Shown here piece by piece: positions 5,971-20,369 of a stretch of DNA of 24,000 nucleotides. The stretch's first letter is position 1. Each line of letters opens with the position of its first letter. The translations under genes were made by a program, and so were the position numbers. This DNA comes from Chloroflexota bacterium. GTDB taxonomy: Bacteria > Chloroflexota > Dehalococcoidia > Lucifugimonadales > UBA3495. The DNA is taken from contig JAQBVF010000003.1 in the NCBI GenBank assembly GCA_027623675.1, positions 1 through 24,000 on the forward strand. The letters run 5' to 3'. The notes below the pieces were generated by a model, which made no database searches, had not been told where the DNA came from, and saw only the letters and a list, made by a program, of their open reading frames with translations.

Positions 5971-6870
5971 GTGGTGGATTCGAAAAGATACTTCGAATAC
6001 GGCTCTAAGGCTGATGTTGTGAGAGGGCAGATGGAAGAAACCTCGAGAGGTCCGCTGCCTGCCGGCGGCGATGCGCCAACCCCCGGCGGGCCGGATGACG
6101 GCGGAAATGCCAGCACATTAGCAGGACTGCGCCGGTTCAACGCGATCATGGCCGTGTTCCACCTGGCCCAGGGAATCGTACTGATCTTGCTGAGCACCGA
6201 TTTCAGCCTGCCGGTAACTTCGTCATTCCTGAAGTTTGACGCAGTCGCCAACAAGCTGGTCGCGGCGCCCGACGAGATCGCCAGCCTTCCTTTGGCCCCA
6301 ATGATCGCCGGGTTCCTCTTTATCTCGGCGGCGGCGCATGCCGCGGTGTCGTCCCCCTGGTTCTTCCCGTGGTACGCGAGGAATCTCCGCAAGGGCGTCA
6401 ACTACGCGCGGTGGATCGAGTATTCCGTGAGCGCCTCGGTGATGATCGTGGTCATCGCCATGCTGGTGGGGATCTACGACATCGCCAGCCTCATCCTGAT
6501 CTTTGCGGTGAACGCGTCCATGATCCTGTTCGGTTGGCTGATGGAGCTGCACAATCAGACCACGGGAGAAACCGATTGGACCTCTTTTTGGTTCGGCACA
6601 TTCGCAGGGACCATCCCGTGGGTGGTGATCGCGGTATACCTGATCGGCTCCGGCAGCGGCGAAGGGGGGCCGCCAGGTTTTGTTTACGGGATCTTCGGCT
6701 CGATCTTCGTATTCTTCAACGTCTTCGCCATCAACATGGTCCTCCAATACAAGAAGATCGGCCCTTGGCGCGACTACCTATTCGGTGAACGGGCCTACAT
6801 CATATTGAGCCTGACGTCCAAGTCCATCCTGGCCTGGCAGGTGTTTGCCGGCACCCTGCGGCCGGTCTGA
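5971..6870 (+). CDS. Heliorhodopsin (retinal-binding 7-TM photoreceptor, inverted topology)
   Basis: Near-colinear similarity to heliorhodopsin 48C12 as I remember it: RFNAIMAVFHLAQG (TM1 His), RWIEYSVSASVMIV (counterion Glu, codon 6418-6420), FAVNASMILFGWL, FWFGTFAGTIPWVV, PGFVYGI, GERAYIILSLTSKSILAWQVFAGTLRP (Schiff-base Lys, codon 6820-6822). The start is ambiguous: GTG 5971, or ATG 6031 preceded by GAGAGGG. Confidence 0.9.
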   Translation: MVDSKRYFEYGSKADVVRGQMEETSRGPLPAGGDAPTPGGPDDGGNASTLAGLRRFNAIMAVFHLAQGIVLILLSTDFSLPVTSSFLKFDAVANKLVAAPDEIASLPLAPMIAGFLFISAAAHAAVSSPWFFPWYARNLRKGVNYARWIEYSVSASVMIVVIAMLVGIYDIASLILIFAVNASMILFGWLMELHNQTTGETDWTSFWFGTFAGTIPWVVIAVYLIGSGSGEGGPPGFVYGIFGSIFVFFNVFAINMVLQYKKIGPWRDYLFGERAYIILSLTSKSILAWQVFAGTLRPV

Positions 6871-6961
6871 TCTTTTGGCGCGGGTCCGCTGTCTTGTGAC
6901 GCCAAGGCCCCAAGCGGCCGCGCTCGGGTCCTGGAGCGGACTTGTGATGGATTGAGGTTCG

Positions 6962-8005
6962 TTGGCAGCACAAGAAGACCTAAGATTTAACTGGTCACAT
7001 CTGCCGCCGGTGGCGTCTCACCTGGCGTCGACCGGAGGTGAGATACGGTCGCGCCTGGAAGATTTCGTGGTTACCGAGATCCCCAAGTACCTGCCCAATG
7101 GCCAGGGACTGCACGCCTACGCTTTCATTGAGAAGAGGGGCCTCACCACCCACGACGTGATCTCCCACCTGCGGTCTCAGGGCGTGGCGATGAAAGATGT
7201 TGGCGTGGCCGGCCGGAAGGACAAATACGCAGTAACACGCCAATGGATCAGCGTGCCCGCAGAGTCAGAGAACGCCCTCGCGTCTCTGGACGGATTGGAT
7301 GGGGTAACGGTGCTCGAAACCTCCCGCCACCGAAACAAACTGGGCGTGGGGCACCTTGCCGCCAACCGGTTCGAGATCACGGTCCGCGGCCCGGTGGACG
7401 ACTGGCAGACCCGAGCTCAGGCCATCTTGGGCCACCTGGAGCGGCAAGGATTGCCCAATTACTTCGGTCCTCAGCGGTTTGGCCGGTTCAATAGCAATGT
7501 TATCGACGCCATGCGGCTGCTCAAAGGCGCCGATGTCCCTGGGGGGCGCAGACTCCAGATGTTCTTTCTCTCTTCGCTGCAGTCCCATCTATTCAATTGG
7601 AACCTGAAACGGCGGATGGAGTCGGGCTTCTACCAGCAGGTGCTGGAGGGTGACAGGGCACAGAAGCACGACACGGGCGGCGTGTTCGTGGTGGAAGACG
7701 CGGCCAGAGAAAGCGAACGGGCGGCCAGGTTGGAGATCAGTGCGTCCCTGCCTTTGCACGGGCACAAGGTGCGTTACAGCGCTGGGCATGCTGGGAGATT
7801 GGAACAGGAGATCTTGGACCACTTCGGTTTTTCCCGCGGCGACCTGCGATTCTTGGGGCTGGGTTCATGGAGGATCAGCCGGGTGCGGGTAGACGAGATA
7901 TCCCTAAAGACGGTGGACGGTGGGTATACGGTCGGGTTTACCCTTCCCAGTGGCGCCTATGCCACCTGTCTGCTGCGTGAGTTGGTCGGCCCAGAAGCTC
8001 GATAA
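6962..8005 (+). CDS. truD: tRNA pseudouridine(13) synthase TruD
   Basis: 347 aa with TruD blocks: EDFVVTEIP, the catalytic Asp motif GVAGRKDKYAVTRQW, LPNYFGPQRFG and FTLPSGAYATCLLRELV. The TTG start at 6962 has GAGG 5 nt upstream. Confidence 0.9.
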   Translation: MAAQEDLRFNWSHLPPVASHLASTGGEIRSRLEDFVVTEIPKYLPNGQGLHAYAFIEKRGLTTHDVISHLRSQGVAMKDVGVAGRKDKYAVTRQWISVPAESENALASLDGLDGVTVLETSRHRNKLGVGHLAANRFEITVRGPVDDWQTRAQAILGHLERQGLPNYFGPQRFGRFNSNVIDAMRLLKGADVPGGRRLQMFFLSSLQSHLFNWNLKRRMESGFYQQVLEGDRAQKHDTGGVFVVEDAARESERAARLEISASLPLHGHKVRYSAGHAGRLEQEILDHFGFSRGDLRFLGLGSWRISRVRVDEISLKTVDGGYTVGFTLPSGAYATCLLRELVGPEAR

Positions 8006-8155: not shown

Positions 8156-8215
8156 GAAACACATACGTAACATCTCAGCAACATTTATTTAACCTAGGCG
8201 AAATTCAACCGAAAC
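8156..8215 (+). promoter_or_regulatory. Array of six direct pentamer repeats phased at exactly 11 bp; GlnR-box-like / OmpR-family regulator binding-site candidate
   Basis: GAAAC(8156) n6 GTAAC(8167) n6 GCAAC(8178) n6 TTAAC(8189) n6 GAAAT(8200) n6 GAAAC(8211), read directly. It matches the Streptomyces-type GlnR box scheme gTnAc-n6-GaAAc. It lies 167 nt upstream of the ureA start. Confidence 0.45.
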
Positions 8216-8381
8216 AGGTCTCGCTTAGTCTCAATAAGGTTTCGTAGCGATACGTGCGCTCTGATCAAGCCCGGTAGCGGCGAAACCTGTGGGGGAAGTC
8301 AGACGCTCTAGGTATCCCGGCGGTGCGGTAGCGCCGTTGAGAGCACAAGGGCATTTGACCAAACATCGTGGAATCATTGAA

Positions 8382-8684
8382 TTGTTTCTAGCACCAAGAG
8401 ACCAGGAAAAGTTGTTGATCTTCATGGCCGCGGAACTGGCAAGACGCCGGCGTGACCGGGGATTGAAACTTAACCACCCAGAGGCAACTGCCCTTATCAC
8501 CTTCGAGATTCTTGAAGGGATCAGAGACGGACGCTCTGTGTCGGAACTCATGGCATTTGGGGCGACCATCCTCACTCGAGACGACGTGATGGAAGGCGTT
8601 CCCGAGATGCTGGCTGAGGTCCAGGTCGAAGGCACGTTTCCTGACGGAACGAAGCTGGTGACCGTTCATAACCCCATTCGATAA
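8382..8684 (+). CDS. ureA: Urease subunit gamma (UreA)
   Basis: (M)[99 protein letters not shown] is colinear with canonical 100-aa UreA (MxLxPRExxKLL..). TTG 8382 gives the canonical length. The track's GTG 8289 would add 31 non-homologous residues. Confidence 0.9.
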
Positions 8685-8937
8685 ACCCTCCCAACGGAAC
8701 TTGCGAGACGCTTCCGCCGCTTCCGTAAGGACGACCGGCGACGGTTGGCGCCCCTTTAAGTAACACGTGTTAGCTTTCTTCGTGCACAAGACGGCTGGCG
8801 CAAAACTCGGGGAGGCCGGCCATAGGCGACTTGTCGGTTGGCACATGGATAGTTTGGCGGGCAGCCGTTGAGCTTCAAATCAAATTCATTCAATCCCGGC
8901 TTTCACGTCTGCCGCGATTAACTCAAGGAGAACCCAG

Positions 8938-10221
8938 GTGACTTTTCTTAAAAGTGTCATAAACATTCCGCGCGGGGCACTGGCCATATTCGCCATGTTG
9001 GTTCTGGCCGCGGCGGTCGCTTGCGGCGGATCTGATCCTACTTCAGCTCCGGCAACCGCCGCGCCTGATTCTGGCGGTGGGTCCGGCTCGGGTAGCGGCT
9101 CCGCGGAAACCATCAAGGTCGGCGTCCTCCATTCCCTGTCTGGCACCATGGCGATCAGCGAGACGGCGGTACGCGATGCCACGCTGTTGGCGATTGACGA
9201 GATCAACGCCTCCGGCGGCGTGCTAGGCAAACAACTTGAACCCGTCGTGGAAGACGGCGCGTCCGATTGGCCGACCTTTGCTGAAAAAGCGCGGAAGTTG
9301 ATTCAATCTGACGATGTTGCCGTGGTCTTTGGAGGCTGGACCAGCGCGAGCCGAAAGGCCATGCTTCCCGTTTTCGAAGGTCTCAACGGTCTTCTGTTTT
9401 ACCCGGTCCAGTACGAAGGTTTGGAAGCATCGCCCAATATCTTCTACACCGGCGCAACGACGAACCAGCAGATAGTCCCAGCCGTGGAATCGTTGCTGGA
9501 AGACGGCAAGACCCGGTTCTTCCTGCTTGGCTCCGACTATGTTTTCCCCCGCACTTCCAATCTGATCATCAACGCTCAACTCAAGGCCGCCGGCCTAGAG
9601 GCGGTTGGTGAGGAGTACACACCTTTGGGCCACGTGGAATACTCCACCGTGATCAGCAAGATCATCGCCGCCGACCCGGACGTGGTGTTCAACACTTTGA
9701 ACGGTGACTCCAATGTGGCTTTCTTCAAGCAATTGAAGGACGCGGGTATCGGAGCAGAGGACATCGTCACCCTGTCGGTCAGTGTTGCCGAGGAAGAGAT
9801 CGTTGGCATCGGGGCCGAAAACATCAAGGACCACTTGGTCGCCTGGAACTATTTCCAGACCACCGATACGCCCGAAAACGAGAAATTCGTCGCGGCCTTT
9901 AAAGCCAAGTATGGTAGCGACCGTGTGACTGACGACCCGATTGAAGCCGGATATTTCGGGGTTTACCTCTGGGCCGCCGCCGCTGAGAAAGCCGGCAGCA
10001 CAGACGTCGCCGCCGTAAAGGCTGCCGCGCCCGGAATCTCCTTCCAAGCGCCAGGCGGATTGGTTACCATCAACGGCGATAACCAGCACGTTTCCAAGAC
10101 TGTTCGCGTTGGTAGAGCCCTTGGCGACGGACAGATCGAAGAGATATGGAACTCGGGTGGACCAGTTAGCCCTGACCCGTATCTGGAAACATACGAGTGG
10201 GCTTCCCAGTTCCACCGGTAA
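8938..10221 (+). CDS. urtA: Urea ABC transporter substrate-binding lipoprotein UrtA
   Basis: [80 protein letters not shown] is typical of UrtA. The N-terminus has a signal peptide with lipobox LAAAVAC followed by a Gly/Ser linker ([10 protein letters not shown]). GTG 8938 has AAGGAG 7 nt upstream. Confidence 0.9.
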
Positions 10222-10289
10222 CCAGCACTTGGTCCAGATATAGGTAAACGACTGTCCCTAAATAGCGTTGTTTACTATCTCGCAGGCGA

Positions 10290-10324
10290 ACGGAATGGTA
10301 CCCGGCTAACGGGTACCATTCCGT
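10290..10324 (+). terminator. Strong intercistronic stem-loop between urtA and urtB (possible partial terminator or mRNA-stabilising element)
   Basis: ACGGAATGGTACCCG / CGGGTACCATTCCGT forms a perfect 15-bp stem with a 5-nt loop. No U-tract follows. A second 9-bp hairpin lies at 10244-10252 / 10267-10275. Confidence 0.4.
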
Positions 10325-10435
10325 GCATCGGCTGCATTGGCAAGGAAGATCACTGGATGCTGCTGGCAGACCAGATCAGCCGGTTTCCGGACGGAATATC
10401 TTGAACGACGGACCGCTTAACATGGACATCCGGAA

Positions 10436-11341
10436 ATGACAGATCCAGCAACGTTTGCTCTGCTTTTATTCAACGGCCTAAGCATGGGTTCGATCCTGCT
10501 GCTGGTTGCTCTTGGCCTGGCCCTCTCTTTCGGTTTGATGAACATCATAAATCTCGCCCACGGCGAGTTTATTATGATTGGCGCCTACACCGCTTATTCC
10601 ATTCAGCAGTCAGCGATATCCCTCACCGGAGACGCGTCGCCCGCGATCACCTACCTAATCTCGATTCCGGCCTCCTTCCTGGTGGCCGGGATCATGGGTT
10701 TTGCGACTGAACGACTGATCATCAGACACCTTTATGGCCGTTCGCTGGACACGCTCCTGGCTACTTGGGGCGTCGGCCTCGCCCTGCAGCAACTGGCCCG
10801 AAGCATCTTCGGAGCGCCAAACGTACAGGTTGTTTCGCCGGGGTGGCTCGCAGGAAGCCTTCATGTCACGGATGTTTTAGTTTTCCCGATCAAACGGATC
10901 TTTATCATAGTATTGGCGTTCGTTTGCGTTGGGGGTCTCTTCTGGTACATGTACAAGACTCATTGGGGTCGCAGGACCAGGGCGGTGATGCAAAACCGGC
11001 AAATGGCCTCCAGCTTAGGCGTGGCCGCCAATCAGGTTGACGGTCTCACGTTTGCACTGGGTTCCGGTTTGGCCGGAGTTGCTGGTTGCACCCTAGCCCT
11101 GATCGGACCCATCGGCCCTTCGATGGGAACGTTCCACATCGTCGACGCATTCATGGTTGTTATTTTGGGGGGTATGGGGCAAATAACCGGCGCGATCGTC
11201 GCAGCCCTGACCATCGGGATGCTGAATAGCATCTTCGAATTCTCCACCAACGCGGTGCTGGGCAAAGTAATGGTATTTGCGATGATTATCTTGTTCCTGC
11301 AGTGGAAACCGAACGGTCTGATGCAGCTGAGTAAACGATAG
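10436..11341 (+). CDS. urtB: Urea ABC transporter permease UrtB (LivH-like)
   Basis: 301-aa polytopic protein with LivH-family blocks ([47 protein letters not shown]), positioned directly after urtA. Confidence 0.88.
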
Positions 11342-11375
11342 ATCAAATGAGATATTCGCCCATCTCGGACTGTGT

Positions 11376-12509
11376 ATGTTAGACAGATTGATCGAGAATA
11401 TTCCAACCGGCGTCCGGACCCAGCTGATTCGTTTCGGTCCGCTACTGCTGCTCGCCATTTTCCTATTCGCGGCCCCGCTGGTGTTGTCTGACTTCCGTGT
11501 GAACCTCATCGGCAAGATCCTCACCTTTGCCATATTGGCTTTGTCACTGGACCTGATATGGGGTTACGCCGGGATGCTCAGTCTTGGTCACGGTGTTTTC
11601 TTTGGCCTGGGCGCCTACGCGTTCGCAATGTTCTTAAAGCTCGAGGCATCCGCAGGCAAGCTTCCGGATTTCATGTTCTGGAGTGGACTCGAAGAGTTGC
11701 CCTTTTTCTGGTCACCCTTCCAGCATGCCTGGTTCGCCCTCCCCATGGTAATCATCATGCCGGGCGTGCTGGCCGGCGCCATCGGCTACCTGGTCTTTAG
11801 AAGCCGCATCACCGGTGTTTACTTTGCGTTGATAACCCAGGCGTTGGCCTTGATGGTCAGCATCCTGTTCATCGGCCAACAAGCCTACACCGGCGGGACC
11901 AATGGACTGACCAATCTTACTGCGGTCTTCGGCCACTCGATCTACAGCACCAGTACCCAGCAGACCTTGTATTACATCACTGTGGTATCCCTTTTGGCCG
12001 CCTACCTGTTGTGTATGGGAATCGTGGCCTCGCCATTTGGACGGTTGCTGGTGGCGATCCGCGACGACGAGAACCGGGTGCGATTTTCGGGATATGACCC
12101 GGCGATAATCAAGTCGGTGATATTTTTTGTCTCGGCTAGCCTGGCCGGGATCGGTGGCGCTTTGTATGCCCCGCAGGTGGGTATCGTGTCTCCATCGATC
12201 ATGGGGATCGTCCCTTCGATCGAGGTGGCCGTGTGGGTGGCGATCGGCGGTCGAGGAACTCTGATCGGAGCGATAATCGGGGCGATCATCGTGAACTACG
12301 CCAAGAGTTTGCTCAGCGAATCCTTCCCGGATTTTTGGACTTATTTCTTGGCGGTATTATTCATCGGCGCCGTGCTATTGTTCCCCCGGGGTATCATCGG
12401 ACTATTGCGGCGGGAAGGATGGCACTGGCCCCAATGGGTAAGTGTCGCCCGCGCTCGGATCAGCTTCCTCACCAACTTCGCGAATACCATGAGGCGGACG
12501 GCCAGATAA
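11376..12509 (+). CDS. urtC: Urea ABC transporter permease UrtC (LivM-like)
   Basis: 377-aa polytopic protein with LivM-family blocks ([46 protein letters not shown]). The stop TAA at 12507-12509 overlaps the urtD ATG by 1 nt. Confidence 0.88.
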
Positions 12510-13441
12510 TGGAACAGAATGGACATATTGGAGGAGCCGATATCAGCAACGGCCATCAGGACGACGGCACTCAAAATATCCTTTCCGTTTCTGACGTAAC
12601 CATCAGTTTCGATGGGTTCACGGTCTTGGACAATCTGGGATTTTTCATTAACCGGGGCGAGATGCGTTTTCTCATCGGCCCTAACGGCGCGGGAAAGACG
12701 ACCCTTCTTGACGTGATAACCGGTAAGTCAAAACCGGACCGTGGAATTGTCACATTTGATGGCGAAGTGAACCTGTCACGCCGCTCGGAACATGCCGTGG
12801 TGAAGCTTGGCATCAGCCGTAAATTCCAAGCACCGACAGTGTTCAACAGTTTGTCGATCCTCCAAAACCTGGAAACATCCGTCCGCTTTCGAAATCGGGT
12901 CATCGGGATGTTCAGATCGCTTTCGGCCACACAATCACAGATCGTTCAACAAACGTTGGAACTGATCGGGTTTGAGGGCCGCGCTCATCGGAATGCTGGG
13001 GTGCTATCCCACGGGGAGCGTCAATGGCTGGAGATTGGGATGCTGTTGGTACAGGAACCCAAACTGCTGCTGCTCGATGAACCGGTGGCGGGCATGACCC
13101 GGCGAGAACGTGATCGGACCGGGGAATTACTCCAAGAGATCGCCAGAGAAAGGTCTGTTCTAGTTGTCGAGCACGACATGGAATTCGTCCGGCGGTTCGC
13201 CAAAACGGTGACTGTACTGCATCAGGGAAAGGTCTTGAGCGAAGGAACCATGGACATGGTCCAGCAAGACCCCAAAGTAGTCCATGCTTATCTGGGTCGC
13301 AGCAGAGAAGCATCGCGGCACGCAGTCCCAGCAGGTCATAAGCTATCCGCAAATGGATCTGGGGCGTTGGAGCCTGAGGGATCACCGGTGTGGGGGAACC
13401 AGCAAAACCTGGTGAAAGATGAGCGGAATGCTGTCAATTAG
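12509..13441 (+). CDS. urtD: Urea ABC transporter ATP-binding protein UrtD (with N- and C-terminal extensions)
   Basis: Walker A GPNGAGKTT, signature LSHGERQWLEIG, Walker B LLLLDEP and FDGF near the N-terminus, as in UrtD. The start is taken at ATG 12509 (TAATG overlap with urtC); the track's 12233 start lies inside urtC. About 50 residues follow the usual ..AYLGR end. Confidence 0.85.
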   Translation: MEQNGHIGGADISNGHQDDGTQNILSVSDVTISFDGFTVLDNLGFFINRGEMRFLIGPNGAGKTTLLDVITGKSKPDRGIVTFDGEVNLSRRSEHAVVKLGISRKFQAPTVFNSLSILQNLETSVRFRNRVIGMFRSLSATQSQIVQQTLELIGFEGRAHRNAGVLSHGERQWLEIGMLLVQEPKLLLLDEPVAGMTRRERDRTGELLQEIARERSVLVVEHDMEFVRRFAKTVTVLHQGKVLSEGTMDMVQQDPKVVHAYLGRSREASRHAVPAGHKLSANGSGALEPEGSPVWGNQQNLVKDERNAVN

Positions 13442-14129
13442 CGGTCTGTCCGCCGGATATGGCCAAAGCACGATCCTCAAGGAGGTTAACATTGACCTCC
13501 TTTCGGGTCAGGCTATCTGTCTGATCGGGCGAAACGGAGTGGGTAAGACCACGCTGCTCAAGACAATCATGGGACACATTCGGCCCAACTTGGGAAAGAT
13601 CGTCCTAGAAGACAATGACGTGACCACCTGGGCAGCCAACAGGCGGGCTGTCGCCGGTATCGGTTACGTTCCTCAGGGTCGGGAGATATTCCCGTTTCTG
13701 ACCGTACACGAGAACTTGCTGATGGGGCTTGAAGCTCTGCCAAAGAGACAGCGTTCTATCGACGCCCTTGACGGGATGTACGATAAGTTTCCGGCCCTTA
13801 AGACATTTCGCACCAAGGCAGCAGGAACCCTCAGCGGCGGGCAGCAGCAACAGTTGGCCCTGGCCAGGGTCCTGGTCCGGAAACCCAAAGTATTATTACT
13901 AGACGAACCCACGGAGGGTTTGCAGCCCAACATAGTCCAAGAGATCGAGGACCTTCTCCACGGTATCCGCGATTCGCATGAAACTTCGATATTGCTGGTG
14001 GAGCAATTCTTAGACTTTGCCATGAGTGTCGCTGATCACTGCTACGTGATGGAAAACGGCGAGATTGTTTTGGAAGGTCAATCCAAAGACCTCGACCGAA
14101 CGTTGGTCAGAGAATATCTGGCTGTCTAA
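13419..14129 (+). CDS. urtE: Urea ABC transporter ATP-binding protein UrtE
   Basis: Walker A GRNGVGKTT, signature LSGGQQQQLALAR, Walker B LLLLDEPTEG. The LivF-like architecture and operon position fit UrtE. It overlaps the urtD 3' end by 23 nt. Confidence 0.9.
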   Translation: MSGMLSISGLSAGYGQSTILKEVNIDLLSGQAICLIGRNGVGKTTLLKTIMGHIRPNLGKIVLEDNDVTTWAANRRAVAGIGYVPQGREIFPFLTVHENLLMGLEALPKRQRSIDALDGMYDKFPALKTFRTKAAGTLSGGQQQQLALARVLVRKPKVLLLDEPTEGLQPNIVQEIEDLLHGIRDSHETSILLVEQFLDFAMSVADHCYVMENGEIVLEGQSKDLDRTLVREYLAV

Positions 14130-14151
14130 ATCTTCAACTAAGATTAACTGA

Positions 14152-14180
14152 TTGACGTCCACTCTCAGTATTTATATCAA
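14152..14180 (+). promoter_or_regulatory. Candidate internal sigma-70-like promoter for glnA, embedded in an inverted repeat
   Basis: TTGACG (14152-14157), a 17-nt spacer, then TATCAA (14175-14180). TGATTGA (14149-14155) and TCAATCA (14177-14183) are perfect reverse complements overlapping the -35 and -10 hexamers. Confidence 0.4.
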
Positions 14181-14210
14181 TCAACCGATTAAAGCATGAG
14201 GGATTACAAA

Positions 14211-15548
14211 ATGGTTTCACGGAACGCCGAGGAAATAGCATTCGTGGTGCAGGCCGCCAGCGAAGCCGACGTCAAATTTGTTCGTTTATGGTTTCCGGAT
14301 ATTCTGGGGCAGCTGAAAGGGTTCGCGATCGGAGTAGACGACCTGGAGGACTCCATCCTTCACGGGGTGGGTTTCGATGGGTCGGCGATCGAAGGTTTCG
14401 CCAGGATACAAGAGAGCGATATGCGTGCCTTCCCCGATCCAACGACTTTTACATTGCTGCCGTGGCGACCGCAGCAGAACGCCGTCGCCAGGATGTTCTG
14501 CGACATCCGTGGCCCCCGGGGCGAGGTCTTCAGCGGCGACCCGCGACTCGCTTTGAAGCGCAATCTGGAAAAAGTGGCCCGGTTGGGCTACACCTACTAT
14601 GTGGGAACCGAGTTGGAATTCTTCTATCTCAAGAATTCCATCAACCCTGAACCTCTGGACAACAGCGGCTACTTCGACCAACTCTCAGGCCAACTGGCCA
14701 GCGACCTCCGCCGGGACACGGTGCTGAACCTCTCTGAGATGGGCGTGCCGGTTAAATACTCCCATCACGAGGCGGCACCCAGCCAACATGAGATTGACCT
14801 ACAGTACACCGGCGCGCTGGCTATGGCTGACAGCGTGATTACGGCCAAACTGTTGATTAAAGAGTTAGCGCAATCACGGGACGTATACGCAACTTTCATG
14901 CCCAAACCCCTCGCCGGCGTGAACGGGTCGGGCATGCACACGCATCAGTCGTTATTCAAAGGCGACAACAACGTTTTCTATGACGGGGACGACGAGCATT
15001 ACCTGTCTGATATCGGGAAGAAATTTATCTCAGGTCTGCTGTATCACGCGCCCGAGATCACGTTGGTGACGAACCAATGGATCAATTCGTACAAGCGCCT
15101 GATACCGGGGTTTGAGGCGCCGGTTTATGCGTCTTGGGCGCATGTTAACCGGTCTGACCTGATCAGGGTCCCCGCCTATAAGCCAGGATATGAAAGCTCG
15201 ATGCGCATCGAGTACCGGGCGCCCGACCCGGCCTGCAATCCCTACCTGGCATTCAGCGTCATGTTGGCCGCCGGCATGAAGGGAATCGAAGAAGATTACC
15301 CGATACAACAACAGGTGGTCGGCAACGTTGCTGAAATGACCGAGGAGCGGCGTCAGTCATTGGGCATCAAGACGCTGCCGAGCAGCCTGGGTGAAGCGAT
15401 CGCATTGGCGGAGGACAGTGAACTGCTCGAGGAAGCGCTGGGTTCCCACATCCACCGCAGTTTCATAGAGAATAAGAAGATCGAGTGGCGAGAGTACCGG
15501 GCGACGATCACCGACTATGAGATCAACCGTTACCTTTCGGTCCTGTGA
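14211..15548 (+). CDS. glnA: Glutamine synthetase, type I (alpha-like; no obvious adenylylation loop)
   Basis: GS-I blocks: VKFVRLWFPDILGQLKGF, FDGSAIEGF, YYVGTELEFFY, HHEAAPSQHEID, KPLAGVNGSGMHTHQS, NSYKRLIPGFEAPV, RIEYRAPDPACNPYLAF. The region equivalent to the E. coli NLYDLP adenylylation site reads GNVAEMTEE. ATG 14211 has GAGGG 8 nt upstream; the alternative ATG 14196 has no RBS. Confidence 0.9.
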   Translation: MVSRNAEEIAFVVQAASEADVKFVRLWFPDILGQLKGFAIGVDDLEDSILHGVGFDGSAIEGFARIQESDMRAFPDPTTFTLLPWRPQQNAVARMFCDIRGPRGEVFSGDPRLALKRNLEKVARLGYTYYVGTELEFFYLKNSINPEPLDNSGYFDQLSGQLASDLRRDTVLNLSEMGVPVKYSHHEAAPSQHEIDLQYTGALAMADSVITAKLLIKELAQSRDVYATFMPKPLAGVNGSGMHTHQSLFKGDNNVFYDGDDEHYLSDIGKKFISGLLYHAPEITLVTNQWINSYKRLIPGFEAPVYASWAHVNRSDLIRVPAYKPGYESSMRIEYRAPDPACNPYLAFSVMLAAGMKGIEEDYPIQQQVVGNVAEMTEERRQSLGIKTLPSSLGEAIALAEDSELLEEALGSHIHRSFIENKKIEWREYRATITDYEINRYLSVL

Positions 15549-15599
15549 ACGAGGGGTACACCTTTTGGAACGCGAGTCTGGAAAAAACAGGAATTGCAG

Positions 15600-15974
15600 A
15601 TGATACCAGGCGAGATCGTATTGGCCGATACCCTGATTATTGCTAATGAAGGGCGTTTAACCGTGGAGCTAACGGTCGCAAACACGGGAGACCGGCCGAT
15701 TCAAGTGGGGTCGCATTTCCACTTTTTCGAAGTGAACCGTGCGTTGCGGTTCGATCGAAAACCCGCGTTCGGCATGCGCTTGAATATCCCGGCAGGTACG
15801 GCGACCCGCTTCGAGCCGGGTGATGACAAGCTTGTGACCCTGGTTGAACTTGGCGGCCGCAAAGAAGTGTACGGGCTCAACTCCCTAACAGATGGTCCAA
15901 CAACCGGGGAAACGGCCCGAGCCGCCGCGGTGGCGAAAGCCAAGGCCGCAGGTTTCTCGGTGGACGCGCGATGA
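15600..15974 (+). CDS. ureB: Urease subunit beta (UreB)
   Basis: [52 protein letters not shown] is canonical UreB. ATG 15600 has AGGAA upstream. The stop overlaps the ureC start (ATGA at 15971-15974). Confidence 0.92.
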
Positions 15975-17689
15975 GCCTGGGAATACCTCGCCGGCAATAT
16001 TCCGACCTGTTTGGTCCGACCACCGGTGACCGTATCCGGCTGGCCGACACCAGTCTGTTCATCGAGATCGAAGAAGACTTAACTGCCCACGGAGATGAGA
16101 GCAAGTTTGGCGGCGGGAAGGTCTTGCGAGACGGCATGGGGCAATCATCTTGGGCGGCCCGGTCCGATGGGGTTCTCGACACGGTCGTGACCAACGCGGT
16201 GATTCTTGACCACTGGGGAATCATCAAAGCCGACGTGGGAATCCGCGACGGGCGAATCATCGCCATAGGCAGGGCCGGCAATCCTGACATCATGAATGAC
16301 ATATCCCCCAACATGGTTGTGGGGGCGGGGACGGAGGTCATCGCCGGCGAAGGAATGATCCTTACCCCTGGTGGGATCGATCCTCACGTCCATTTCATCT
16401 GCCCGCAACTGGCCTGGGAGGCTTTGGCGTCCGGGGTGACTACCCTGATCGGCGGGGGCACCGGACCAGCCACCGGGACCAAAGCGACGACGTGTACGCC
16501 CGGTGTTTGGAACATTCACCGGATGCTGGAGGCCGCGGAAGAGATTCCGATCAATCTTGGTTTCTTGGGTAAGGGCAACGCGTCTTATCAAGAACCCCTC
16601 GCAGAGCAGATTCTTGCCGGGGCAATGGGCCTGAAACTTCATGAAGACTGGGGCACCACCCCGGCGGCGATAGACTCGGCTTTGACTGCCGCCGAGTTGT
16701 ACGACGTTTCGGTGGCCATCCACTCGGACACGCTGAACGAGGCTGGCTATCTGGAAGATACCATCCGGGCTTTCAAAGGCCGGACGATCCATACCTACCA
16801 TACGGAAGGCGCTGGCGGTGGCCATGCACCCGATATCATCCGCGTGTGCGGTGAGGCCAACTGCCTGCCGTCGTCGACCAACCCCACCATGCCGTTCACC
16901 GTTAACACCATGGATGAGCACTTGGATATGCTCATGGTCTGTCACCATCTGAACGCGAGCGTGCCCGAAGACCTGGCTTTCGCCGAGTCACGGATCAGGG
17001 CCGAAACCATTGCCGCCGAAGACATCCTGCAGGACATGGGTGCGATCAGCATGATGTCGTCTGATTCCCAGGCGATGGGCCGAGTGGGCGAAGTTATCCT
17101 CCGTACTTGGCAGACAGCCGACAAGATGAAGGTCCAGCGGGGTCCTTTGGCCGGAGAAAAACCTGGGAACGACAATCTACGCGCTCGTCGTTACATCGCC
17201 AAATATGCCATTAACCCCGCCATAGCCAATGGCTTTGCCGATGAAGTTGGGTCTATCGAAGTCAACAAATTGGCAGACATGGTGCTTTGGCGGCCGGCAT
17301 TCTTCGGAGTAAAGCCGGAACTAGTGATCAAGGGCGGGTTTATCGCCGGGGCCGCCATGGGTGACCCTAACGCCTCGATCCCCACTCCACAGCCCGTGAT
17401 TTTCCGTCCGATGTTTGGAGCGATGGGCCGGGCGCGTTACACAACTTCCGTAACATTCCTGTCCGCCGCGGCGATAGAGGCTGGCGTACCCCAAAGTTTG
17501 GGCCTGCAGAAACGGACCGTGGCCGTTCATAACTGCAATAACTTAACCAAGGCCGACATGGTTAATAATGACGCCTTACCGAAGATCGAGGTTGATCCCG
17601 ACACCTATGAGGTGCGCGCCGACGGCGAATTGCTAAAGTGCGAACCAGCCGAGACCTTGCCGATGGCCCAGCGTTATTTTTTGTTCTGA
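15971..17689 (+). CDS. ureC: Urease subunit alpha (UreC)
   Basis: 572 aa with nickel-site and flap motifs: [22 protein letters not shown] (carbamylated Lys), [44 protein letters not shown]. Confidence 0.95.
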
Positions 17690-17707
17690 TCGGCTGATTC
17701 GAATCAA

Positions 17708-18421
17708 TTGAAACGGAGCAGTATCTTGGACCGAGAAGTTGCAAGTCATGTCAGCCTGCTCCAGTTTGCCGACTCGCTCTTTCCCATCGGCGGACAGGCC
17801 CATTCTTTCGGGCTTGAATACTATGTTGACCAGGGTTTGGTAACCGGCGCGAATGGCGTTCAAGAATTATTGGTCTCCCACCTGAGCGGCCGGGCTGGGC
17901 CTTGTGATGCCGTGGCCGTGGTGGTTGCCGAGCGCCTGGCACGTAAGAATGACCTGGCGGGATCTATCTCATTGGACCGAGATATGGACGCCCAGAATCA
18001 TGTTAAAGAGTCCCGGAATGCCAGCCATCAGATGGGCCACCAGACGGCCCGTCTGGCGAGCGCTCTGACCAAAGACCCGTTCATCAACTCGTACCTAGAC
18101 GCTGTCGAGTCGTCGGATACGCCAGGAAATCACTCCGTTGCTTTCGGCCTCTGCGGTGGGGTGATCGGCTGGAGCCCCGAGCAGACAGCATCGGCGTTTT
18201 TGTTCTCAACGGCCAGTCAGATGGTGGGAGCGGCGACGCGGCTGGTGCCCATCGGTCAGTTGGACGCTCAGAAGATACTGTGGGCGGTTGGTCCGCTGAT
18301 CTCCGAATTGTCAGCCGGAGTTATAGACAAGGCTCGCGACGATATCTGGAGTTTCAGTCCTGGACTAGAGATCGCGGGTATGCGGCACGCCGGTCTGGAA
18401 CAACGGCTATTTCGCTCCTGA
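17708..18421 (+). CDS. ureF: Urease accessory protein UreF
   Basis: LLQFADSLFPIGGQAHSFGLEYYV is the UreF N-terminal signature. The start is uncertain: TTG 17708, or TTG 17726 with GGAG 8 nt upstream. Only 18 nt separate it from ureC, so no ureE fits between them. Confidence 0.85.
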   Translation: MKRSSILDREVASHVSLLQFADSLFPIGGQAHSFGLEYYVDQGLVTGANGVQELLVSHLSGRAGPCDAVAVVVAERLARKNDLAGSISLDRDMDAQNHVKESRNASHQMGHQTARLASALTKDPFINSYLDAVESSDTPGNHSVAFGLCGGVIGWSPEQTASAFLFSTASQMVGAATRLVPIGQLDAQKILWAVGPLISELSAGVIDKARDDIWSFSPGLEIAGMRHAGLEQRLFRS

Positions 18422-18480
18422 CGGGGGCTTAAGATTCGGCCGAACGATCACCGGCAAGCGAGTCTTTGATCGAGGTGGAT

Positions 18481-19101
18481 ATGGCACAAAAACCAACAGT
18501 CATTGGGATCGGCGGCCCGGTTGGCTCCGGAAAAACAGCTTTGGTGGAGGCGTTGTGCCGCAAGTTAAGTGATGAGCATGAGATGGCTGTCATTACCAAC
18601 GATATCTACACCAAGGAAGACGCAGAATTCTTGGTCCGTAGAGGGGTCCTGCCAACCGGGCGGGTAATGGGCGTCGAGACCGGGTCTTGCCCCCACTCGG
18701 CGATACGGGAGGATGCGTCGGTCAACCTTGAAGCCATACGTGAATTGAACCGCCGGTTCCCCAACTTAGAGTTGATCCTGCTTGAAAGCGGAGGGGACAA
18801 CTTATCTGCCACATTCAGCCCTGAATTGGTCGACTCCGCGATCTACGTGATCGACGTGGCCGGCGGCGAAAAGATCCCGAGAAAAGGCGGCCCGGCCATA
18901 ACCCGTTCGGAACTTTTGATAATCAATAAGACCGACCTGGCATCGCAGGTAGGCGCGGACCTGGGAATCATGGAAACCGATACGATTCGGGTCAGGGAAG
19001 GCCGCCCATTTTATTTCACGAACCTCCGTGACGCCGAAGGTATTGGCGCCGTATCAGACTGGGTGCTGGAACGGTTAACTACTAGGATGACAAGCGGTTG
19101 A
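18481..19101 (+). CDS. ureG: Urease accessory GTPase UreG
   Basis: P-loop [14 protein letters not shown], the CPH motif ([13 protein letters not shown]), ESGGDNL and INKTDL. ATG 18481 is preceded by GAGGTGG. There is no His-rich N-terminal stretch. Confidence 0.92.
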
Positions 19102-19138
19102 TCCGCTTCGTTCTACGGCGCCGAGCGACGATTAAATC

Positions 19139-19957
19139 ATGAATGGCAGTATGAGCTTGGGCTTTGAGAGCCGTGGACCCAAAACCGTGATGACGCACAG
19201 CCGTTCAACCTCGCCGCTGAAAATATCGAACCCGATATATCTAGACGACAGCGACGCGCTTTGCGCCATGTTTCTAAACCCATCCGGAGGGCTGCTCGGG
19301 GGTGATCGCCTCATTACGGATATCAATCTGGCCGAGAACGCCCATGTTGTGTTTACGACTCCTTCAGCCAGCAAGGTATACCGGACGAACGCGGACCCCG
19401 CCTCACATCGGACTACCGTTCATGTAGAAGAAGGGGGGGTGTTGGAATACATACCGGACCATGTTATTCCCCACCCTGGGTCGTCCTTCAGCCAGTCCCT
19501 AACTGTGAATCTTGAGGCAGGAAGCCGGGCAATCATCTTTGATGGATTTTCTGTGGGACGCATCGCCCGGAATGAGAAATGGCGCTTCAAGGAATTCAAC
19601 ACCGAGCTTGAGGTTAATCTTCGCGACAGAGCGGTTTTCCGCGATCGAATCAAGATTCAACCGGATAACTGGACCCCGTCACAGCTCGGAGGATCGGAGT
19701 CCGCTAATTACGTGGCCACAATGGTGGTCTACGCTGATGTTGATCTAGATTGGCAAGAAATGGCTGATGGTTTTACTCGAGTGGTTTCAGACGATCGTGA
19801 TTCGGTCGGAGCGGCTTCAACTCTTTCCGATGGCGGATGCCTCGTCCGTTATTACACCGTGTCAGCCCACGGTCTAAACAAGGTCACCAGTAGGTTATGG
19901 GCGATGGCCAGACGCTCCCTCTTAGATAGACCCGCTTTAGAGTTAAGAAAATGGTAG
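19139..19957 (+). CDS. ureD: Urease accessory protein UreD (UreH)
   Basis: NPSGGLLGGDRL..FTTPSASKVYR.. is the typical UreD core. It is the last gene of the same-strand cluster. Confidence 0.85.
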   Translation: MNGSMSLGFESRGPKTVMTHSRSTSPLKISNPIYLDDSDALCAMFLNPSGGLLGGDRLITDINLAENAHVVFTTPSASKVYRTNADPASHRTTVHVEEGGVLEYIPDHVIPHPGSSFSQSLTVNLEAGSRAIIFDGFSVGRIARNEKWRFKEFNTELEVNLRDRAVFRDRIKIQPDNWTPSQLGGSESANYVATMVVYADVDLDWQEMADGFTRVVSDDRDSVGAASTLSDGGCLVRYYTVSAHGLNKVTSRLWAMARRSLLDRPALELRKW

Positions 19958-20294: not shown

Positions 20295-20369
20295 TGGTCG
20301 GGGTGAGAGGATTTGAACCTCCGGCCTCTACGTCCCGAACGTAGCGCGCTACCCCTGCGCTACACCCCG
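20295..20369 (-). tRNA. tRNA-Pro (anticodon CGG), CCA encoded
   Basis: Minus-strand read: CGGGGTG TA GCGC AGGGGTA GCGC G CTACG TTCGGGA CGTAG AGGCC GGAGG TTCAAAT CCTCT CACCCCG A CCA. It forms a full cloverleaf with a 7-bp acceptor stem, anticodon loop TTCGGGA and T-loop TTCAAAT. Confidence 0.92.

Follow-up and report, generated by a model that had tools for sequence, protein, structure and literature searches.

Introduction

The urease operon of Mycobacterium tuberculosis has the gene order ureABCFGD, and in Actinobacteria such operons come under GlnR control. The ure genes of Synechocystis PCC 6803, like those of other cyanobacteria, are dispersed, with ureA, ureB and ureC each at a locus of its own (PMC6737895). 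Urease genes of SAR202 were first reported in 2024, and deep-ocean urea use by such groups is likewise a recent report (PMC11697164). Here we describe a further arrangement, found in a 24,000-nt stretch of DNA (hereafter the window; positions 1 to 24,000 of the forward strand of contig JAQBVF010000003.1, assembly GCA_027623675.1) from a Dehalococcoidia genome of the phylum Chloroflexota. In the window, ureA stands apart from ureB and ureC, and the genes for a UrtABCDE urea importer and a type I glutamine synthetase, glnA, lie between them. Taken as a whole, the locus is in our judgement likely to be a functional urea-to-glutamine module, transcribed as a single operon under nitrogen control in which ureA is the gene closest to the promoter, and its order would be an old, mosaic-derived permutation within its clade.

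Gene content of the cluster

A first-pass annotation, made from the letters of the window, had read twelve genes on one strand in the order ureA-urtABCDE-glnA-ureBCFGD. This reading is borne out by the listing of open reading frames (ORFs) and by profile searches (8382-19957, plus strand throughout). The first gene, ureA (8382..8684), encodes a urease gamma subunit of 100 residues that matches PF00547 Urease_gamma over positions 1-99 of 99 (E 7e-47) and scores above the NCBIfam cut-off (NF009712, 164.7 bits against 123). The best solved match of its product is PDB 2fvh (E 1e-42, residues 1-99), which we take to be a mycobacterial UreA. Judged by its sequence, the product probably remains the gamma subunit of the same enzyme, with position alone changed.

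Beyond a spacer of 253 nt (8685..8937) lies urtA (8938..10221), which encodes the substrate-binding protein of a urea ATP-binding cassette (ABC) transporter (TIGR03407, 575.7 bits against a cut-off of 492.75). It is followed by the permease genes urtB (10436-11341) and urtC (11376-12509), both BPD_transp_2, and by the ATPase genes urtD (12509-13441; TIGR03411, 341.3 bits against a cut-off of 304.1; ABC_tran) and urtE (13419-14129; ABC_tran). These five genes supply, in order, the binding protein (UrtA type), the permease pair and the ATPase pair of the UrtABCDE importer. The glutamine synthetase gene, glnA-U (14211..15548), encodes a type I enzyme with Gln-synt_N and Gln-synt_C domains (TIGR00653, 456.7 bits against 429.15). 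Its longest ORF opens at 14196, and ATG 14211 is the start common to its relatives; the urtE-glnA gap is 81 nt from the latter and 66 nt from the former.

The remaining urease genes follow as ureB for the beta subunit (15600, or 15594, to 15974; PF00699, E 1.6e-43), ureC for the alpha subunit (15971-17689; PF00449 and PF01979), and the maturation genes ureF (17708-18421; PF01730), ureG (18466-19101; PF02492) and ureD (19139-19957; PF01774). By comparison with relatives, ureB probably starts at ATG 15600. The overlaps claimed at first pass are all present, with 1 nt between urtC and urtD, 23 nt between urtD and urtE, and 4 nt between ureB and ureC, where the genes meet in an ATGA; apart from the spacers around urtA, discussed below, the remaining junctions overlap or span 18-81 nt and carry Shine-Dalgarno sequences. 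The alpha chain of Klebsiella aerogenes aligns with UreC at E 3e-258. The nickel ligands, the carbamylated Lys and the catalytic residues of UreC are all identical to those of 8hcn_C in the alignment (residue numbers hand-counted); in K. aerogenes alpha numbering they are presumably H134, H136, K217, H246, H272 and D360, together with C319/H320. On the opposite strand within ureC, the Rfam model 5_ureB_sRNA matches window positions 16123-16421 (-) with 76 bits, above its gathering score. Most likely this Helicobacter-derived model is catching conserved urease coding sequence rather than a small RNA.

The source is a metagenome-assembled genome of 3.07 Mb in 48 contigs, 91% complete and with 5.7% estimated contamination. 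It holds a single copy each of ureA, ureB and ureC; across the whole genome we found neither a second ureA nor a ureB adjoining any ureA. UreE is not universal among ureases, and ureE was not found in this 91%-complete genome. A second glnA, 75% identical to the urease-linked copy, lies on another contig (C44:52455-53789) behind two ammonium-transporter genes.

Gene orders across the family

To place the window among its relatives, urease gamma and beta profiles were searched against all 203 species-level genomes of the same Dehalococcoidia family, and the twelve window proteins were mapped onto about 60 loci to read gene order. Three main gene orders could be told apart. The commonest, Type I (urtABCDE-glnA-ureA-ureB-ureC-ureF-ureG-ureD), occurs in about 46 genomes of genera g2, g11, g17 and g18. 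Type II (urtABCDE-ureA-glnA-ureB...) occurs in about 14 genomes of genera g7, g12, g43, g48, g50 and g51. The order of the window, Type III (ureA-urtABCDE-glnA-ureB...), occurs in six genomes of genera g1, g3, g10 and g48: the window genome (G000), G028, G021, in which urtA is duplicated, G167, G003, whose cluster is without glnA, and G014, which has the downstream part only. G014 belongs to the genus of the window genome. Its locus (L012, C194) corresponds to the window between the end of urtC and ureF, the 3.7 kb upstream does not match urtA, urtB or urtC, and ureA was not found in the G014 genome. The locus may represent a Type III cluster that has been rearranged or cut short, or else a chimera of the assembly.

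Overall, ureA is separated from ureB in about 27 of the 77 urease-bearing genomes of the family. An even sample of 400 Chloroflexota supplied 65 urease-bearing genomes outside it, and in 64 of these the ureA-ureB gap is 9-330 nt; in the last it is 878 nt. Separation of ureA from ureB is a characteristic of this family and is rare elsewhere in the phylum. The first-pass description of the order as unusual therefore holds at the scale of the phylum, but not in the sense of a one-off, since Type III is a clade trait shared by six genomes in four genera. That the order is common and already catalogued in the clade was named at first pass as a finding that would count against the claim; the family frequency given above bears out the first part to some extent, and we found no published description of a ureA-urtABCDE-glnA-ureBC order in the open literature, subscription journals lying outside the search.

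The ureA|ureB junction is the site of other variants too. It holds a 797-aa PQQ-propeller gene in G036, a DDE transposase in G128 (there within a second copy that is decaying) and a 1.1-kb insert with no recognised gene in G112, and contig ends fall exactly at this junction in G103 and G176. To these inserts may be added glnA in Type II and urtABCDE, with or without glnA, in Type III. Viewed along with the mosaic nature of Type III, set out below, they suggest a boundary between ureA and ureB at which insertions are tolerated and have occurred repeatedly in this family. In G137 a Type II cluster is cleanly split: urtABCDE-ureA-glnA forms one locus, and ureBCFGD lies about 1 Mb from it. The two G137 breakpoints (L110, 3′ of glnA; L111, 5′ of a small ORF before ureB) share the 21-nt sequence GGGGTTTCCGTCCGAGTTTCT, which may mark the repeat by which the two parts came to lie so far from each other. 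An additional gene of some 0.9 kb stands between ureF and ureG in many Type I clusters (as at L113:5318-6055); in G112 it encodes a Uma2-family putative endonuclease.

Age and origin of the Type III cluster

Across the five complete Type III loci, the proportion of nonsynonymous differences (pN) is 0.073 for ureA and 0.074 for ureC, and the proportion of synonymous differences (pS) is 0.74 (saturated) for ureA and 0.67 for ureC. Because synonymous sites are saturated and the pN of ureA equals that of ureC, the Type III order is old and the displaced ureA is under full constraint.

The modules of the cluster differ in their affinities. The urease-linked glnA copies of the three types fall together in a single clade, with a support of 96 in the Shimodaira-Hasegawa-like approximate likelihood ratio test (SH-aLRT), apart from the housekeeping glnA of the family, which includes the second copy of the window genome and groups in the tree with a record labelled 'SAR202 cluster'. 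Likewise, UrtA of the window is 74-85% identical to that of Types I and II and 61-67% identical to that of other Chloroflexota families. UreC has a different profile, with 86-91% identity within Type III, 63-64% to Types I and II and 70-72% to several other Chloroflexota families, and UreF and UreD of Type III are only 22-38% identical to those of Types I and II. In the UreC tree, Type III groups with other Chloroflexota families (support 92), and Types I and II form a separate clade (99). These trees come from quick searches with SH-aLRT support only and have no rooted species tree. Both urease lineages occur within genus g48, whose members all stand at the same distance from the window genome in Mfd (70-71% identity).

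Since glnA and UrtA are typical of the family while UreC sides with other families, Type III is most likely a mosaic, as read from its sequences, in which urtABCDE-glnA, a module typical of the family, came to lie within a urease gene set of a different lineage, with ureA on one side and ureB on the other. A local hop of ureA in a Type I ancestor was considered as the sole origin and is ruled out, the Type III ure genes being of a different lineage from those of Types I and II.

The cluster has a G+C content of 53-60%, against about 64% in its flanks, and a tRNA-Pro (CGG) gene (20295..20369, minus strand) marks the downstream edge of this lower-GC stretch. The flanks vary within the genus, with truD not upstream in G003, and 3 of the 19 genomes of the genus carry the cluster. 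Low G+C, a tRNA edge, varying flanks and patchy presence are consistent with gain and loss of the cluster as a unit. In the window, a heliorhodopsin gene and truD (5971-8005) lie directly upstream on the same strand, a context that is not common to the other Type III loci.

Predicted promoter region and GlnR-type boxes

Upstream of ureA, six GTAAC-like pentamers spaced 6 nt apart, on an 11-bp phase (8156..8215, plus strand), are predicted to be boxes for a GlnR-type activator. A predicted -10 hexamer, TAGTCT (8226..8231, plus strand), lies 10 nt 3′ of the last box and places the predicted transcription start near 8238. In the paper on 8HIH and 8HML, the GlnR site consists of gTnAc/GaAAC units with the consensus GTAAC, six bases apart (PMC10235972). 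The array before ureA fits this published definition of several sites, 6 nt apart, ahead of nitrogen-assimilation genes.

Read by eye, the Type III loci have five to eight pentamers of the forms G(T/A)AAC/TTAAC/GAAAT at a spacing of exactly 6 nt, about 170-230 nt before ureA. A strict scan found arrays 167-215 nt before ureA in four of these loci; the array of L003 is weaker and interrupted and was seen by eye only. Applied to the whole genome, the strict periodic scan returned two arrays only, that of ureA and another some 90 nt ahead of amt1, which encodes the first ammonium transporter. A looser scan, with a four-site core and at most 2 mismatches, gave five sites genome-wide and none in a reversed-genome control; these sites precede ureA, amt1, amt2-glnA2, an ABC importer operon and a gene for a GlnR-like regulator. 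The full box-plus-(-10) pattern has one exact match in the genome, before ureA. The reduced pattern of two boxes plus the -10, allowed 1 mismatch, was unspecific genome-wide, with 8 matches against 8 in the control. By eye, the layout box, 6 nt, box, 10 nt, TAnnnT was present in about 19 of 21 upstream regions, the amt promoter included.

Types I and II have the same box-plus-(-10) layout before urtA, and Type III has it before ureA, so that the regulatory region always stands ahead of whichever gene comes first. On the Type I and II loci the strict scan detected one array in about 40, and their half-sites are more degenerate (TTTAC, GCAAC, GAAAT). Inside the cluster, no second set of GlnR boxes came to light even when 3 mismatches to the four-site core were allowed, and matches to the two-site pattern were no more frequent there than by chance.

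A candidate regulator is encoded by the ORF at L133:1568-2245. It is an OmpR-family protein with a Trans_reg_C domain and no receiver-domain match, and its best solved relatives are the actinobacterial GlnR structures 8hig and 8hih (both with E about 1e-28; the next family stands at 4e-19), together with 8hml; it reaches no NCBIfam equivalog. Its own box array lies on contig C43 (C43:59418-59455), and the genes downstream, which run to L133:6421, include those for a molybdopterin oxidoreductase, an MFS transporter and a nitrite/sulfite reductase. The regulator gene and its neighbours look like an autoregulated nitrate-assimilation cluster. Just ahead of the first amt gene (L131:3140-3205, C44), the short tandem repeat GGGATTAGCCATTT occurs in three to four copies, placed after the GlnR-box promoter and before the start codon.

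Spacers within the cluster

The three larger gaps had been described at first pass as carrying hairpins or promoter-like elements. Their sizes stand (253 nt for ureA-urtA, 214 nt for urtA-urtB and about 80 nt, that of urtE-glnA), but a significant hairpin is found in one gap only and a second GlnR-box promoter in none. The ureA-urtA spacer of the window contains no terminator, no GlnR boxes and no structure beyond chance (z -0.35). In the four remaining Type III loci this spacer is likewise no more structured than shuffled sequence (z -0.5 to +1.6), and none of the five has a terminator-like site after ureA. This spacer is 137-264 nt long across the five loci and is unconserved in both sequence and length. 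In the window it contains TAACACGTGTTA, a perfect 12-bp palindrome (8761-8772) that is absent from the other four spacers. A candidate sigma-54 promoter in this spacer was attributed to chance, as Sigma54_DBD was not found in the genome and the spacer is unconserved.

The significant hairpin lies 3′ of urtA (10282..10335, plus strand), where a stem-loop with an 18-bp inner stem gives the urtA-urtB gap a z of -4.2. A hairpin of -27 to -41 kcal/mol occupies this gap in all five Type III loci despite their differing sequences; that of the window has no U-tract. Hairpins after the binding-protein gene are usual in ABC importer operons, which make more binding protein than permease. By analogy, the hairpin here is probably a partial attenuator or an mRNA stabiliser that raises UrtA over the permeases.

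In a simple sigma-70 scan, 7.2 sites were expected by chance; 1 was found, and it lay outside the gaps. Ahead of ureA, there was no Rfam match to a riboswitch or leader RNA at E up to 1. A conserved structure in the ureA leader was likewise considered and rejected, the consensus of five leaders having an energy of -3.6 kcal/mol and an unfavourable covariation term.

The ureA start and subunit stoichiometry

Type III loci also differ at the ureA start codon. In Type I, Type II and canonical loci, ureA begins with ATG (ATGATG...) in 44 of 44 cases, whereas the five Type III genes begin with TTG (four, the window among them) or GTG (one). Three of the five also have weak Shine-Dalgarno pairing (about -3 kcal/mol, where the other types average -6.7), and the window ureA is one with a weak Shine-Dalgarno sequence. 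Weak initiation on the promoter-nearest gene would be expected if that position gives more message, and the weak Type III start may tune subunit dosage.

The first-pass annotation had held that canonical urease loci keep ureA, ureB and ureC contiguous, and had asked how a 1:1:1 stoichiometry is maintained when they are not. Contiguity is no rule, given the separate subunit loci of cyanobacteria, and for the same reason the stoichiometry question is not a new one (PMC6737895). Across the family, ureA has shifted toward the promoter and away from ureBC, and in the G137 split it was retained with urtABCDE-glnA. One might then read the repeated displacement as adaptive, with the gamma subunit made first and in tuned amounts to seed assembly, or with a second role in coupling the Urt importer or the glutamine synthetase to urease; we consider this improbable.

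Discussion

In the reading we favour, transcription would begin at a promoter about 145 nt 5′ of ureA, activated by a GlnR-type (OmpR-family) regulator on the six phased GTAAC-like boxes, and would yield one long nitrogen-regulated transcript from ureA to ureD. Urea would be taken up by UrtABCDE and hydrolysed by UreABC, itself matured by UreFGD, and the released ammonium would be fixed by the dedicated second glutamine synthetase. Subunit balance would be set post-transcriptionally, through the weak TTG or GTG start of ureA and through the urtA hairpin, which would partition transcript levels.

That the arrangement exists at all, and that its ureA matters, might be doubted. A draft of 48 contigs with some estimated contamination could in principle have joined ureA wrongly to urt-glnA-ureBC, the true genome having a contiguous ureABC. 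Yet four further assemblies, made independently and drawn from four genera, show the same order, one of them on a 2.4-Mb contig (in G014 the match is confined to the downstream part), the proteins of the cluster co-diverge across the Type III loci, and the ureA start codon is specific to Type III. The box promoter stands directly before ureA in four of five loci by the strict scan, with the weaker array read by eye in L003, and the genome holds neither another ureA nor a ureB beside one. The probability of an artefact is in our view close to nil, and misassembly is effectively refuted by synteny across independent assemblies. It is also very unlikely that the detached ureA is a decaying or repurposed relic beside a urease that is inactive or independent of it. 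Relics do occur in the family, with ureA fragments or an orphan ureA beside decayed urt or glnA pieces in G027 and G146, and a weak start codon would suit such a gene. The window ureA, however, is intact and full length, is under purifying selection as strong as that on ureC and is the only gamma-subunit gene in the genome, while its partner genes are all intact and the catalytic residues of UreC are conserved.

The organisation of transcription is a closer question. The cluster might instead comprise several transcription units, with a short ureA transcript from the GlnR-box promoter and with urtABCDE, glnA and ureBCFGD each served by a promoter of its own in the 253-, 81- and 51-nt spacers. 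The wide gaps on either side of urtA would suit this arrangement, and the strong hairpin 3′ of urtA could stop a transcript. Before glnA there is a sigma-70-like element, TTGACG-17-TATCAA, with flanking inverted repeats, and the ureBCFGD genes of G137 sit at their separate locus with no GlnR boxes visible there. Against this, no Type III locus shows a terminator-like site or excess structure after ureA, the window has no second box array, spacer sequences vary even within the genus, the urtA hairpin lacks a U-tract, and the sigma-70 scan fell below expectation and left the gaps empty. The absence of both a second array and a terminator after ureA leads us to prefer one operon, and we regard several units as unlikely, though by some way the most credible of the alternatives. 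A number of points weigh against a single operon with a tuned ureA. The 11.6-kb transcript is one that we infer, and the 253-nt and 214-nt gaps leave room for promoters that a simple sigma-70 scan would miss; there is also the sigma-70-like element before glnA, which is unconserved in relatives. The Type I and II box arrays were read by eye, with one passing the strict scan. The weak-start pattern is a correlation within one clade and a single evolutionary event, and in L002 a TTG start is combined with a strong Shine-Dalgarno sequence. The node that joins Type III UreC to other families has a support of 84-92, below 95, which bears on the mosaic origin.

The arrangement has practical consequences. 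Annotation rules that require ureABC contiguity could wrongly score these Dehalococcoidia (SAR202-like) genomes as urease-incomplete. Three stable permutations of the same twelve genes under the same type of promoter offer a natural series in which position, start codon and hairpin can be set against subunit ratios, and the embedded, dedicated glutamine synthetase paralogue suggests that nitrogen from urea passes straight into glutamine. Our understanding of urease itself is unchanged.

Comparison with known urease clusters

Set beside the actinobacterial ureABCFGD operon, the window cluster has the same three structural subunits, the same F-G-D order of accessory genes and the same lack of ureE. 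The two are alike as well in PDB 2fvh as the nearest UreA and in GTAAC-type boxes 6 nt apart (PMC10235972). They differ in that the genes for the urea importer and the glutamine synthetase here put 6.9 kb between ureA and ureB, and in that the host is a member of the Chloroflexota. The cyanobacteria Synechocystis PCC 6803, Synechococcus PCC 7002 and Thermosynechococcus resemble our system in encoding the subunits apart, and the cyanobacterial enzyme works (PMC6737895). In many cyanobacteria the urt genes also adjoin ure genes, as they do here (PMC6737895). Their loci are unlinked, however, and under NtcA-type control, whereas in this family one same-strand cluster is kept and only ureA is displaced, to the promoter-nearest position or next to it.

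Closer to the window, Types I and II share with Type III the twelve genes, their strand, the dedicated glnA clade and the box-plus-(-10) layout before the first gene. Type III differs from them in the position of ureA, in the lineage of its ure genes and in a TTG or GTG start in place of ATG. Other Chloroflexota clusters also interleave uptake and hydrolysis genes, in the orders ureFDABC-urtABCDE-ureG (G505), urtABCDE-ureABCFG (G264) and ureABCFGD-urtABCDE (G598). Their UreC proteins are 67-72% identical to that of the window, but ureABC is contiguous and glnA is absent there. In G505 (L135, C2:452500-472400), the insertion of urtABCDE falls between ureC and ureG, which interleaves the two modules in another way. 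The parts of the window cluster, a nickel urease, a Urt importer, a type I glutamine synthetase and GlnR-type boxes, are ordinary; the unusual feature is their order.

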